Shown: in pieces, positions 45,090-62,279 of the stretch
Numbering within the stretch: the first letter of the stretch is position 1
Layout of the letters: every line of letters begins with the position of its first letter
NCBI GenBank assembly: GCA_010015585.1
Contig: ML975166.1
Length of the DNA: 64,000 nt
Reading direction: 5' to 3' (one strand)
DNA from: Eremomyces bilateralis CBS 781.70
Lineage: Eukaryota
Made by a program: the position numbers and the translations under genes
The notes under the pieces: model-generated
Seen by the model: only the letters and a program-made list of their open reading frames with translations
Databases searched by the model: none
What the model was told of the DNA's origin: nothing

Positions 45090-45479
45090 AAGCGGCAGAG
45101 GATGTTCTGGTGCCTTGTTTGTTTCCATGCCACGCTATCCAGCAGACTCTACGATTGTGTGATACCCCAGTCTCGTTTGTTGTGTATGGACTGTCCATAA
45201 TACTATACCTTATGATCGCTTTCAAATAGTACATACTGTATGTACCTGGAGTTTCCATATGATATGTCTGCTCGAAGTTACTTGGCGTACCATAAGGGGC
45301 CGTGCCGTATCCATATGACGTGAATCGGTCTTGCAATTTGTTCCGTACCAACGTGCTCCTCTGGCCAACTACAACCCTCCTATAAAAACACAACGTCACA
45401 CTGCGGGGCACCGATCAACATAATTCTGCAACATCCAAACAACTGAACGCAAGACTACATTTTCTCACAGAAGTCCATC

Positions 45480-46112
45480 ATGGCAGATCTCAGTCCGGCC
45501 GAGCAAGAAAAGGTCGACCAGGAGCTCCAGGCCAAACAATTCGCGGAGCAGGCCGCATTACCATACAAATGGACGCAAACGATCAAAGACGTCGATGTCA
45601 CCGCACAAGTCCCCGCCAACATGCGAGGAAAAGACTTTGATGTCAAGATCACCAAGACCAAATTACGGGTCGGATTGAAGGGTCAGGAACCGATTATCGA
45701 CGTACGTTGAAACGGATTCGATTGGTGTCGCGCAAGAACGCTGGCTGATCCGCCGCATTATCAGGGCGACCTCCCCCACCCCATCCACGTTGACGAGTCG
45801 ACATGGACCCTCGAATCGACGAAGGACGGCAAGGAGATCAGCATCCACCTAGATAAGGTCAACAAGATGGAATGGTGGGCGCACGTCATCACCTCTGCGC
45901 CGAAGATCGACACGACCAAGATCCAGCCGGAGAACAGCAACCTGGGCGACCTCGACGGGGAGACGCGGCAGATGGTCGAGAAGATGATGTTCGATCAGCG
46001 GCAGAAGGAGATGGGGAAGCCGACGTCGGACGAGATCAAGAAGACGGAGATTTTGGAGAAGTTTAAGAAGGAGCATCCGGAGATGGATTTCTCGAATGCG
46101 AAGCTGGGATGA
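45480..46112 (+). CDS. nudC: Nuclear movement protein NudC
   Basis: [61 protein letters not shown]; intron 45702-45764. Confidence 0.95.
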
Positions 46113-46323: not shown

Positions 46324-48465
46324 TCATGATTTTGAGAGCGCTAAATGGTATGTCTTGAGCTGCTCGGCCGTCATCCTCGACGGACTCTTGACAAGGGGAT
46401 CTTCACCACTCCCGGTTTTTGGGAACGCAATCACATCCCTCACCGAATTCCTACCTAGCATGACCGCAACCAGCCGGTCGAGACCCAACGCGATGCCCGC
46501 ATGCGGTGGACACCCCATACGCAGGACATCCAGCAGATGTTTGAAGTCCCCAAGCCGTGCCTCGCTAAGCTTCAGGATATCCTTCAGCATATATTCCTGG
46601 AACTTCGCATCGTGGATCCGACGACTTCCTCCGCCGAGCTCCACGCCATTCACCACGATATCGTAATGATCCGCCTTCGCGAGCAATGGATCCGTGTCGA
46701 GCAGCGCCACGTCGTCCGCCGTCTTCGGCGCCGTGAACGGATGATGCGTCGATGCCAGCCCGGTCATGCTTCCCTGGCCAACTTCGCCGTCTTCGCATTT
46801 CGAGAGGAGCGGGAAGTCCTTGACCCACAGGAACTGGAATCCGGAAGGAGGCTCCACCATCCCCGTGGTGACAGCCACTGCGTGTAACGCGAGGCGCAAC
46901 CGACCCATCGCGGTCGATCCGCCGGACAACGGTGCGTTTGCTCGGGCTTGCATGATGACCAGGTCTCCGCTCTCCAAGTCCCACTGATCCTCCAATGTCT
47001 CCGCCGCCTCGAAGCCAAGCGGTTGGAGACCACGCAACGGTTTGGTGGTGTCGTAGATGAAGATTCCCGGCTGCCCGTCGGGATTTCGTAGAAACGGCAC
47101 CGCCTCCGGGGAATCCATGAATTTCGCGGCGAAGGCGCGCGTTTCGTTGGGATTGTCCGAGACTTGGAACCGCATGGCATCGACGATCGGTATGGTCAAG
47201 GGGCTGATTTTGCCGACCAGATCCGCCGGAATCACATGCTCGCATCGAGAAATCTCCATCCCGAAACGCATGTCGGGCTTGTCGGACCCGTAGCGAGCCA
47301 TGGCATCGTCGTACGGCATGCGAAGAAACGGTCCGGGGATGTCCATGCCCAAGAGCTCTTTCCACAGCCGCGTCAGTAATGTTTCAATGCCGTTCATGAC
47401 ATCGGCGGATGTTGCGAAGCTCATCTCAAGGTCCAGCTGGGTGAATTCCGGCTGCCGGTCGGCACGTAAATCCTCATCCCGGAAACATTTCGCGATCTGA
47501 TAGTACTTGGGAATTCCGCTGGCCATAAGGATCTGTTTGTATTGCTGCGGGCTTTGCGGGAGCGCGTATGCGAGCCCTCGTTCTCGTGTCGGCACCAAGA
47601 ACTCCCGTGCACCTTCCGGTGTCGATTTGAACAGGATGGGGGTCTCGACCTCGAGGAATCGTTGGTTCGATCCTAATTCGTCCCGGCACAGTTTGGTAAC
47701 GTCGGCGCGAAACCGCAGTGCACGCTGCAGGTCGAAGTCGAAACGAAGTTGCAGGTTCCGCTCCTCCGCCGGGAATCTGGTCCCTTCAGCAATGAGGACA
47801 TCACTGGGGAATTGACCTAGCGCCTGGATCCTCTGCAGCTCCAACTCGAGAGATTGGAATTTGCGTTGGTCGAACGAGTCGCTTTTGCTAGGCTTCTTAG
47901 CCTTCAACTTCCCGGTGATGGTAACCGGGCTCTGCGGAGTAATCGTCCTGAGAATCGCGTGGGGGGCCGATGGGTCAACAGTCCCGTCTTTTGAGACATT
48001 TGCTACGGATACAACCTGTAAAATCTTGCTCAGGTCTTTGCTATATAGGGGAGCAAAAGAGAGTTTCTTGGACAGGTCGGATCTTGGGCCGAGATAGCCA
48101 TGGAGGGTCACATCGGTTCCGATAAGGGAATTCGACAAATCGCTGATGTCGCAGGTCGCTATCGGAAATTCAACTTGGAATTCTTAGCTCATTCAACAGG
48201 ATCACAGTTTGGGAGACTTACATGATCGTAAATAGGTGGACCCTTGGAAAGCGTTTTTATCATCAAACAGATGTCGAGCGGTGGAGAATCCTCTCTCCCC
48301 TATTTTGCCATTCAGGCATGTGTGTTCCTCTACTGGGTGCCATGACAAGTAGGATAGACAAGGTGGTACTCGAGGGAATCGCCGTTTTGCAGATGCCCCT
48401 GAAGTTCGGCGAAGAATGGGGACTTCCTTAGTTGCGGTATTCCATGCTCTTTTAAAGGGGGACAT
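46324..48465 (-). CDS. MSD1: Mitochondrial aspartyl-tRNA synthetase
   Basis: STPEGAREFLVP, LPQSPQQYKQ, CFRDEDLRADRQPEFTQLDLE, YGSDKPD, HHPFT, ELGGGSRRIH, PPHAGIALGLDR, VIAFPK; presequence exon 48465-48222; intron 48174-48221 (AAG acceptor). Confidence 0.94.
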
Positions 48466-48718
48466 ATGCTCTTGACCTGTCGGCAGGATGGGGATTAAAC
48501 AGACTATTTAATTCATTGGCCAATGGATTATTGCGATACCTGCTGTAGAACAAGATTAAATTATTGTTGAAACTTTGATAGACGCGATGGATTCATGTGG
48601 TGGAGCAGGGAACCAGAACTTCGTGTTAAGGCGACAAGGCGATAAGGCCGCTACACCACAGTTCCCAACCTTAAAACAAATCTTCAGATGCGATCTCTCC
48701 CACTCTTTTTTCTTCTTC

Positions 48719-48970
48719 AATGATCCTTCCAAGTTTAACTAAAGTGAGTCCTCTGAATTTCGCTATTCGCACGTTACCTGATGCTAACAAGGTTCTCTCC
48801 CAGATGATGAAAGCCTGGCGTGTAATCGATGAGCTGGCCTCCGATCGTCGCTGGGCAACTCTCCCTTCGCGGGCTTCAGTGGTTGCTCAGCGGCTCGGAT
48901 GGTTTGCATGATATCGGCGTTCGGCACACCCTATCTTGTTACTCCGACGGACGCGATGGCATCTCTGATA
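48719..48970 (+). ncRNA. snR45: snR45/U13 (SNORD13)-type box C/D snoRNA, interrupted by a spliceosomal intron (48744-48803)
   Basis: 5' AATGATCCTTCC (48719-48730) is complementary to the 18S 3' end GGAAGGAUCAUU; CTTGTTAC (48935-48942) is complementary to 18S GUAACAAG; box C ATGATGA 48804-48810; box D CTGA 48965-48968; internal hairpin 48841-48898; intron GTGAGT..GCTAAC..CCCAG. Confidence 0.85.
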
Positions 48971-49738
48971 TGATTTACTTGGAAGGTATTGGGTGGATCT
49001 GGGAACGGTTTGCTGGAGGAGAGTTAGTGATGCGAAGGGGATATTTCCCGGTTTGCTTCCAGCGTGTACATAGACGGAATAGATATTTCGTGTCAACTGA
49101 ACAACCAAGCGCCATGATATTCAGGCCGTATATCCATTCAATGGGCCGTTTCCGTCTTAAATGTTCTCGTATGCCTTGTTCCAATTGTCTCCAGCACTAG
49201 CTGCGTTCTGGACTTGTACATGAATTGCACTGTCCCGGAAATGATTCCAACCTGGTGGACTGATAGGCTACGTAACAAACAAAAGGCCCTGAAAGCCAAA
49301 GGGTCATTTCATCTGGACCATCTTGAAATTCTATGTCTCACCATCGACTGTACTGACAATAGGGATTAAATATGAATATGAATATTAATTCTGGCTGCTG
49401 CCGAATCTCGTCGACCACCTCCACCAAGATCCCCCCCCTGCTGTGCTGCATGTGTCTGAGTTGTTCTCATGCCGTGACGGCCGTATTCTCGTACTTCGCA
49501 AACCCCCAATCTCACAGTATGCCGACCACATAACCTCCACCACTTTCTTCCAAATCCACCACGAAATCCCTCTGTGCAGCTCTCAAACTCTACTGCGGCC
49601 TCCTTATAATACCCTGAGCGTCCAGCCTCCCACTCATCCCCCACGCGAGCGACCCACTTGGCCATGGCTTGACGACATCGATCGAACCTCTGAATTCCGA
49701 TTCCATATCCAGGACTGAAAAGTCCCTCATAACAGCAG

Positions 49739-56468: not shown

Positions 56469-56881
56469 GGAGGGTTTCTGCCAGGAATTATGGGCACCTG
56501 GAAATTGCGTTTTGTGTAATATTCGACAGCGTAGCGCGTTTTATTTGCCCATACCCAGTTAGNNNNNNNNNNNNNNNNNNNNNNNNNNNNNNNNNNNNNN
56601 NNNNNNNNNNNNNNNNNNNNNNNNNNNNNNNNNNNNNNNNNNNNNNNNNNNNNNNNNNNNNNNNNNNNNNNNNNNNNNNNNNNNNNNNNNNNNNNNNNNN
56701 NNNNNNNNNNNNNNNNNNNNNNNNNNNNNNNNNNNNNNNNNNNNNNNNNNNNNNNNNNNNNNNNNNNNNNNNNNNNNNNNNNNNNNNAATAAAAGAGGTA
56801 TAGCGGCACCGCTTAATCAGCGGATTACAGCTGTCGAGCCTGATTTTCAGGTGTTCCACATATTCCTGGCAGAAACCCTCC
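56469..56881. mobile_element. TIR (MITE-like) DNA transposon spanning the assembly gap
   Basis: Perfect 20-bp inverted repeats GGAGGGTTTCTGCCAGGAAT (56469-56488 / 56862-56881) extend imperfectly to about 60 bp (cacctg.aaat, tcgacagc); flanked by ATT on both sides; interior is N. Confidence 0.75.
56563..56787. other. Assembly gap (N run)
   Basis: Run of n characters. Confidence 0.99.
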
Positions 56882-60865: not shown

Positions 60866-62279
60866 TGAATGGCAACTGAGGGGCGACTACAACTCGCATA
60901 CATGGGCGGAGATGGTGCGTTTCTCGGGATTCTATGTCTGGCGACGGCTTCTGATGAATCATTTCGGGTATGTGAATGCATGCGAGGCGCCTTTTCCTGT
61001 TCCTATTTAGGTAATCTATTGACAATATGGCCACACCCGGTTGTGGCCTTGGTCAGCATGAGCAAGAGGGCTGAGACTGTCTTATGGAGGCATCAGATGA
61101 CGCCTACATGTGTCCGGAATCGCATGTGATACGACTTTCGTTCCAGCTTACTCAAAACGAGACCTTGGTTGTTTCGTTCCCACTAAACACCTCACTCCAA
61201 GCAACGGATGCACGAGAATCTGGTCTGCTCATTCAGTATGCACCATGCATACCTGCTCATTCGCTTCCAAGTCGCTTGTACCACGACGATCTAGACCCGC
61301 TCCGCCACCTTAATCAAAATCATTGGGGCTACCTCTTAAGGAGGCTCTTGCATCATGGCAAATCGGCTGATCGAGAAGCCGCGGGGTTGTATACCAGCTT
61401 CACTTGGAGCAACATGACGGTTCCTCTCATGATTGGGCTTTATCACCATGTCGATGCCAGGGTACAAACTCGGCGCTGCGACTGACTACGAGCTGGCCAG
61501 CTCAGCTGGTCCCGGACCCATGTAGCCCGAACCCTCGTCCTTTCAGGGAATCGGATGCTTTCCATCTGCTCACGAGACACAGCAAGAAAGACTACGTAGT
61601 AACCAGTACGGAGGTACTCCGTATACGTGTCATATTATTTGTCGGGTACAATAGAGGAAAGAGAAGAGGACAGTGGTGGCGCTGTCTTCAATGACTTCCG
61701 AAGAACTCGATGCCAGAAATAGATCCTTTCACTTCATTTGGTGTTGTGCTCACTTCCCTTTTAGTCACGATGAGTTCGAATCTTTGCTGTCACCATCTGG
61801 TACGTGGAACCTCCAACCTGTTTCACGAGATATTAGAGGCCCTTGAGATCGGGGGCATGCGACCCCGAGAGACGTCATCTCTCCGTTCCCTGTCCACCAC
61901 CCGATTGGAGGTCCGTCCTGGAATATTTTCTGATACAAGCAATTGCTGAACGTCGAGGGATATCTTATATGTACAGTCCGAATTAATCCGCGCTCGGGTC
62001 GAAATGATCCATCCAGTATCGTTCCCGTTCTCCTGACGACGGCATACGTGCACCTCATCAGTCCGATGATCCCACAAAACTCTCCGCATCGACATCCCAC
62101 GGGTCCATCCCGCCCCATACATCCCCGCCGATTTAACCGTTAGCCCGCAAGAGGTACAGCATGCGCGTACGGATCTTTATATCCGGACAATAATTCCGCT
62201 TCATCCCTTCATTTCTACCCTCTCGACCTTTTACCATTTCACTTCCAGCGACCATAACGGATGGCATTGCGCGTTCGCA

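Follow-up and report, generated by a model that had tools for sequence, protein, structure and literature searches.

A candidate snR45/SNORD13-type guide RNA gene with a predicted intron in a filamentous ascomycete

Introduction

The closest described relatives of the locus reported here are the box C/D RNAs that guide acetylation at helix 45 of 18S rRNA. In Saccharomyces cerevisiae, the 5′ end of snR45 is a conserved 18S-complementary segment, GS1 (nt 1–15), which lies ahead of box C, the bulk of the molecule is a variable helical region, and a second segment, GS2, sits in a loop beside a helix (Sharma 2017, PMC5464676). The same paper gives GS2 as 8 nt (nt 120–127) that pair with 18S 1760–1767 and reports that acetylation of C1773 needs both guides. 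Vertebrate SNORD13 (U13), as portrayed in the parts of Bortolin-Cavaille 2022 (PMC9226516) on which we draw, carries one antisense element at its capped 5′ end and an internal one before box D. Sections of the Thalalla Gamage 2022 preprint describe how the 5′ antisense elements of SNORD13 pair ~15 nt past the mature 3′ end, forming stems IV/V; disruption of stem IV abolishes accumulation of the RNA, and compensatory changes restore it. The preprint accordingly proposes, in those sections, that a 3′-extended precursor masks the 5′ antisense of SNORD13. The Diptera form of SNORD13, Drosophila Or-CD1, also has boxes C and D and guides helix-45 acetylation, in the partial account available.

Interruption by introns is unusual among RNAs of this kind. 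U3 has been called the only snoRNA that is frequently intron-interrupted, and U3 and U6 alone among small RNAs with a defined structure are known to be interrupted often (Canzler 2017, PMC5832005). The introns of fungal U3 genes have the consensus GTRWGT and RCTRAC and strongly prefer CAG, with a mean branch-to-acceptor distance of 15 nt (Canzler 2017, PMC5832005).

The fungal range of the helix-45 guide has been drawn narrowly. Canzler et al. 2018 found the snR45 family confined to Saccharomycetaceae, and Bortolin-Cavaille 2022 (PMC9226516), in the parts used here, identified no SNORD13 counterparts in fungi beyond budding yeasts, leaving open whether SNORD13 was lost in other fungi or is hard to detect. 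The listings and abstracts returned by our own literature search described no snR45/SNORD13 homologue in fungi outside yeast. Here, we describe a candidate that is concrete and expressed, from a filamentous ascomycete, with which the question of loss or difficult detection in fungi becomes testable.

Results

Locus and genomic setting

The candidate gene lies at 48719 to about 48990 on the plus strand of the window, by which we mean the whole 64-kb stretch of DNA that was analysed, and we propose it as an independently transcribed gene of the snR45/SNORD13 type. A preliminary description of this stretch had listed the motifs of such an RNA here, and a script that re-read the sequence found every one of them on the plus strand where it had been placed, confirming the observation. 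The same description had named a tRNA-synthetase gene and an ANTH gene as neighbours, and both were borne out. On one side lies an ORF on the minus strand (46324–48183) for a class II aminoacyl-tRNA synthetase of the D/K/N type (PF00152, 1.9e-100); on the other, a domain search located ANTH-domain exons on the plus strand from 49791 onwards. The likely start codon of the synthetase gene is the ATG at 48465 on the minus strand, and its N-terminus resembles a mitochondrial presequence. This start would place the candidate 253 bp from the divergent gene, and the 253-bp divergent intergenic region is common to the synthetase gene and to the tract upstream of the candidate. The tract in question (48689–48718, plus strand) lies directly 5′ of the presumed start and is rich in pyrimidines, with C or T at 26 of 30 bases (87%). 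As in fungal promoters generally, it may provide promoter or start-site context.

Beyond the immediate neighbours, a CS-domain gene (PF04969, 8.7e-05) is found at 45447–46112 on the plus strand, downstream of the synthetase gene. The only gap in the window consists of 225 consecutive N at 56563–56787, either masked or unsequenced.

A protein-coding reading of the locus was rejected. The 124-aa stop-to-stop frame at 48826–49200 has no Pfam match, and removal of the predicted intron lengthens no frame at the locus (58 versus 78 aa). An ATG-initiated frame of 36 codons runs from box C to a TGA within the RNA body (48804–48914), and we took it as a chance occurrence.

Guides, boxes and architecture

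The putative first exon is 25 nt long (48719–48743, plus strand; 48719 is the presumed start of the RNA) and consists of guide 1, the 12-mer AATGATCCTTCC (48719–48730), followed by a 13-nt spacer, AAGTTTAACTAAA (48731–48743). Guide 1 is the exact complement of GGAAGGAUCAUU, and guide 2, the 8-mer CTTGTTAC on the same strand (48935–48942), is complementary to GUAACAAG. The helix-45 rows of S. cerevisiae, S. pombe and human read ...GGUUUCCGUAGGUGAACCUGCGGAAGGA (Bortolin-Cavaille supplement, PMC9226516), and in all three rows helix 45 is followed by GGAAGGA, which fits the target of guide 1. Both guides are single-copy sequences, with one exact occurrence apiece of the 12-mer and the 8-mer when both strands of the 64-kb window are counted; by our arithmetic, ~0.008 exact occurrences of the 12-mer would be expected per window by chance. 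The remaining letters of the 18S targets, at the 3′ end and in the stretch 5′ of helix 45, are presumed from 18S sequences in general; the host's own 18S does not lie in the window.

When up to one mismatch was allowed, the 12-mer had 2 matches against 0.50 expected, and at least two matches also appeared in 11 of 100 shuffles. This count falls within the shuffle range, so weight attaches only to the exact 12-mer. A one-mismatch copy of the guide, AATGATCCATCC, stands at 62003–62014 on the plus strand and is consistent with chance by the same shuffles.

The two boxes come in the order typical of the family. Box C (ATGATGA, 48804–48810) has its first base directly after the predicted splice acceptor, and box D (CTGA) occupies 48965–48968; both are on the plus strand, and they stand near the ends of the RNA that accumulates (contigs 48804/48813–48971). 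The predicted second exon, which forms the RNA body, is placed at 48804–48971 on the plus strand and carries this contig cover. Guide 2 ends 22 nt before box D, and guide 1 would come to lie 13 nt before box C once the predicted intron is removed. In the fold computed for the unspliced precursor, guide 2 sits in a loop closed by a short helix (~48917–48923 with 48948–48954); other folds pair this region differently. Between box C and guide 2, a long hairpin (48836–48904, plus strand) was seen in all four folds computed. Its energy is −37.8 kcal/mol (z = −4.77), and none of 200 shuffles folds as well. Exon 2 as a whole folds no better than its shuffles (z = −0.71; 44 of 200 as good). By analogy, the hairpin would correspond to the variable helical domain of snR45.

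The likeness to S. cerevisiae snR45 extends over several features. Like snR45, the candidate would be a box C/D RNA from an intergenic independent gene. Ahead of box C comes a 5′-terminal guide for pairing downstream of helix 45, and before box D an 8-nt second guide in a loop by a helix (CUUGUUAC here); a large variable helical domain is common to the two as well. The two differ in that no intron is reported for snR45 and no sequence or covariance-model similarity was detected between them; moreover, guide 1 here offers 12 contiguous pairs, whereas yeast uses nt 1–15 against 18S 1781–1798. The C′/D′ motifs and the proposed pseudoknot are further features of snR45 for which no counterpart was established in the candidate. 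Vertebrate SNORD13 has the same placement of a 5′ and an internal antisense element, but is shorter and, in the accounts used here, has three antisense segments with bulges and no intron in its RNA-coding sequence. If both duplexes form as the sequence predicts, helix 45 and its CCG would loop out between the two, which is the published 'pocket'.

The predicted intron

Between the spacer and box C lies a predicted spliceosomal intron of 60 nt (48744–48803, plus strand). The canonical signals reported in the preliminary description are all present: the donor GTGAGT at 48744–48749, the branch site GCTAAC at 48783–48788 (branch A at 48787) and, after a pyrimidine run, the acceptor CAG at 48801–48803, 16 nt past the branch A. 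The donor, the branch site, the CAG and the 16-nt distance agree with the published consensus of U3 introns. With fungal U3 (PMC5832005), the proposed gene would further have in common that it is an independent box C/D gene with a short canonical intron in its 5′ rRNA-binding domain, U3 being a different RNA with a different function.

We then asked how often such signals arise by chance. The window contains 4 matches to a strict intron pattern (GT[AG]AGT, RCTRAC and YAG, under limits on length), whereas 200 dinucleotide shuffles averaged 0.695 and never exceeded 3, so that 0/200 reach 4. Each of the three remaining matches falls within a coding frame that becomes longer once the match is taken out (142 versus 123, 157 versus 82 and 351 versus 67 aa), indicating that the strict pattern detects introns well in this genome. 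Between 48600 and 49800, the plus strand has no strict donor other than the GTGAGT at 48744, and no branch site besides that of GCTAAC/CAG has a YAG at the usual distance; one other branch/acceptor pair, 49352/49362, stands at the minimum distance of 6 nt.

The distribution of these signals bears on a different arrangement, in which the snoRNA would be embedded in, and cut from, exon 2 of a longer spliced non-coding or 5′-UTR host, possibly that of the ANTH gene, with guide 1 separated from it. Exon- and intron-encoded snoRNAs within spliced hosts are known in Neurospora crassa (CD6, in the part of the source used), and the ANTH gene does lie downstream on the same strand. However, no usable combination of branch site and acceptor exists between box D and 49352, and such a host would leave unexplained the presence of guide 1 and its 10-bp partner, described below, on either side of the box C/D body. 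We consider this arrangement quite improbable.

A stem between guide 1 and the 3′ extension

The region also contains a feature that was absent from the preliminary description, a perfect 10-bp inverted repeat on the plus strand. Its 5′ arm, CCTTCCAAGT (48725–48734), overlaps the 3′ half of guide 1 and the spacer, and all 10 of its 10 bases pair with the 3′ arm, ACTTGGAAGG (48977–48986), which lies 8 nt past box D. Whether the precursor is folded spliced or unspliced, its minimum-energy structure contains the resulting stem. When the tail was shuffled 20,000 times, exon 1 and the 30 nt past box D reached a complementarity of at least 10 in 11 cases (p ~5e-4), and exon 1 reached it with 11 of 19,925 random 30-mers of the window as well. 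Because the stem links exon 1 to the box C/D body, it provides independent support for their belonging to one molecule. By analogy, we presume that the precursor continues into a 3′ extension which includes the 3′ arm and masks guide 1, and the 10-bp stem would thus mirror stems IV/V of vertebrate SNORD13. Pairing between the 5′ guide and the 3′ extension suggests an ancient origin for precursor masking of the human SNORD13 type.

The distances from the stem arms to boxes C and D are 9 and 8 nt without the intron and 69 and 8 nt with it. These distances enter into the question of whether the insert might instead be retained, giving a mature RNA of ~253 nt with 48744–48803 as an additional domain that separates guide 1 from box C. 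In favour of retention, the 10-bp terminal stem is found in the unspliced precursor too, and variable domains are tolerated by snR45-type RNAs. Retention is nevertheless opposed by the asymmetry of the stem arms, 69 and 8 nt from the boxes, and by the splice signals themselves, because a donor, branch site, pyrimidine run and acceptor in order and correctly spaced are expected only ~4e-4 times in the interval. A further point against it is that the alignment of an RNA contig from a relative, presented in the next section, stops exactly at 48804. We therefore regard a retained insert as highly improbable.

Expression of the RNA body

Part of the stretch is present in only two public runs, X1 and X2. 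In X1, 56 contig pieces fall on the region, and the 8 pieces listed span 48813–48971. One 86-nt contig of this run reaches a depth of 11,669.6, compared with 255.8 over the first exon of the neighbouring synthetase gene. Such a contrast in depth is impossible from a single-copy DNA locus, and X1 thus behaves as RNA, its record being only a guess. X2 is a soil metatranscriptome, in which a 157-nt contig from a relative matches 48804–48957 with 12 differences. From the depth contrast in X1 together with the X2 contig, we conclude that the body, running from box C to box D, is an abundant small RNA. The contigs reveal neither the strand nor the ends of the RNA, and its plus orientation rests on the orientation of the boxes. 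X1 also covers 48400–48461, within the likely first coding exon of the synthetase gene (minus strand), at a depth of about 140–256.

Contig cover is lacking from 48462 to the body (where X1 begins at 48813 and X2 at 48804) and again over 48989–49300, gaps that prove nothing. The furthest X1 piece among those listed ends at 48971, short of the 3′ arm of the stem. Among the X1 and X2 contigs, none contains the 48743|48804 joint and none lies on exon 1, gaps that are equally uninformative given that X1 misses box C too. The X2 contig aligns from exactly 48804, with its first 3 letters unaligned, whereas an unspliced copy with a conserved AG would align two bases further; the edge is therefore a weak hint of splicing, and a diverged intron-free leader could look alike.

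The claim that splicing joins guide 1 to box C thus stands in part. In its favour are the rare canonical signals, the acceptor flush with box C and the symmetry of the stem; against it, a contig across 48743|48804 did not appear. Judging from the sequence, we consider splicing of 48744–48803 probable. That splicing gates acetylation is speculation.

The contigs also bear on another reading, in which the snoRNA consists of the body alone. Such an RNA would be ~170 nt long, start a few bases before box C and finish shortly past box D, the leader 48719–48803 being removed by exonucleases. Guide 1 would then act at most in the precursor, or as a partner of the 3′ extension that helps assembly, and guide 2 alone would guide, as in Drosophila Or-CD1. 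The contig pieces agree with this to the extent that those listed fall within 48804–48971 and the X2 contig begins 3 letters before 48804. A body-only RNA could also be functional, since the SNORD13 of Diptera guides acetylation even though it has no 5′ antisense, in the part of the literature we draw on; the gene described here differs from Or-CD1, which is reported there to have no 5′ guide at all, in containing a perfect one. Several observations oppose this reading. It leaves unexplained the exact 12-mer complement, expected ~0.008 times, as well as the 10-bp stem and a canonical intron whose last base abuts box C. Guide 1 is essential in yeast (Sharma 2017, PMC5464676). The sequence offers no terminal stem right at the boxes, as the bases that immediately precede box C do not pair with those that immediately follow box D. 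Nor is the left edge of X1, at 48813, an RNA end, since X1 leaves even box C uncovered. Overall, we judge a body-only snoRNA unlikely.

Proposed pathway and its implications

The bipartite snR45/U13 guide identity put forward in the preliminary description is well supported by the order and spacings of the elements, which match the published architecture, by the abundance of the body and by the SNORD13-like stem. It is very probable that the locus encodes a bipartite guide of the snR45/SNORD13 (U13) type for 18S helix 45. On balance, we also lean towards the full model with splicing included, namely that a split snR45/SNORD13 gene guides Kre33/NAT10 to one cytosine. Apart from the expression of exon 2, all of its steps are ones that we infer.

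In this model, RNA polymerase II would start at ~A48719, just past the pyrimidine tract, a start that would put guide 1 at the capped 5′ end of the transcript. Transcription would pass box D, and the 3′ extension at 48977–48986 would pair with 48725–48734, masking half of guide 1. The spliceosome would then take out 48744–48803, bringing guide 1 to a position 13 nt before box C and the stem to 9 and 8 nt from the boxes, after which boxes C and D would be able to form a kink-turn and bind the core proteins. Trimming of the 3′ extension to ~48971 would free guide 1. Finally, the mature RNA of ~193 nt would pair with GGAAGGAUCAUU through guide 1 and with GUAACAAG(GU) through guide 2, presenting helix 45, with its CCG looped out, for acetylation.

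If the intron is real, the gene would be the second kind of snoRNA gene with a spliceosomal intron, after U3, and would serve as a practical warning that genes of this sort escape searches of genomic DNA by homology or covariance. A broader proposal, which we offer tentatively and think doubtful, is that intron-split genes are the normal form in filamentous ascomycetes and that the 5′ guide needs two licensing steps, splicing followed by 3′ trimming. Were this true, it would explain why surveys found the guide only in budding yeasts among fungi. It would also mean that helix-45 acetylation depends on spliceosome activity and that a masking stem in the precursor is common to fungi and humans.

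Family models and homologue searches

Comparison with the Rfam snR45/U13 models, which the preliminary description had suggested as a check of its assignment, gave no match on unspliced sequence or on exon 2: none reached the gathering score in the unspliced window, and none appeared at E up to 10 on 48600–49100 or 48796–48976 (the unspliced locus and exon 2, respectively). Known snR45/SNORD13 members, in the accounts available in part, have little sequence in common outside the guides, so the Rfam miss weighs little; membership at the level of sequence is still without a match. The family's architectural features are thus present, similarity to its sequence models was not found, and the RNA would be expected to work like snR45/SNORD13. 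The area of box C gave weak matches to the SNORD10 and sR17 C/D models. Matches to the SNORD10, sR17 and mir-9033 models were rejected because they lie far below the gathering scores and pick up no more than box C or the hairpin.

Orthologues were sought in seven scans of metagenome, prokaryote-genome and viral collections. The queries were the intronless, spliced form (metagenome and viral collections), the intron-containing form (metagenomes, prokaryote genomes and viral collections) and an exact 22-mer of the guide-2 region. The scans returned 0 loci from these collections, which hold little fungal DNA, a result that is silent on conservation.

Published fungal catalogues were compared as well. 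The N. crassa catalogue (Liu 2009 supplement) contains no C/D RNA with CUUGUUAC, the orphans CD53 and CD55 being checked too. The Aspergillus fumigatus catalogue (Jochl 2008) includes several intergenic RNAs of 160–270 nt, none of them matched to the locus through its flanking gene names. A Pezizomycotina structure of 144 nt with 24 covariations, 'Intergenic structure 2' (Gao et al. 2021), might be the same RNA.

One further entry of the N. crassa catalogue drew our attention for its layout. Nc CD52 (Liu et al. 2009 supplement) is an intergenic RNA of 177 nt with a 17-nt extension before box C, and conservation of its published tRNA targets was not found by Canzler 2018. On its layout alone, Nc CD52 might be a snR4-type partner, that is, the guide for helix-34 acetylation.
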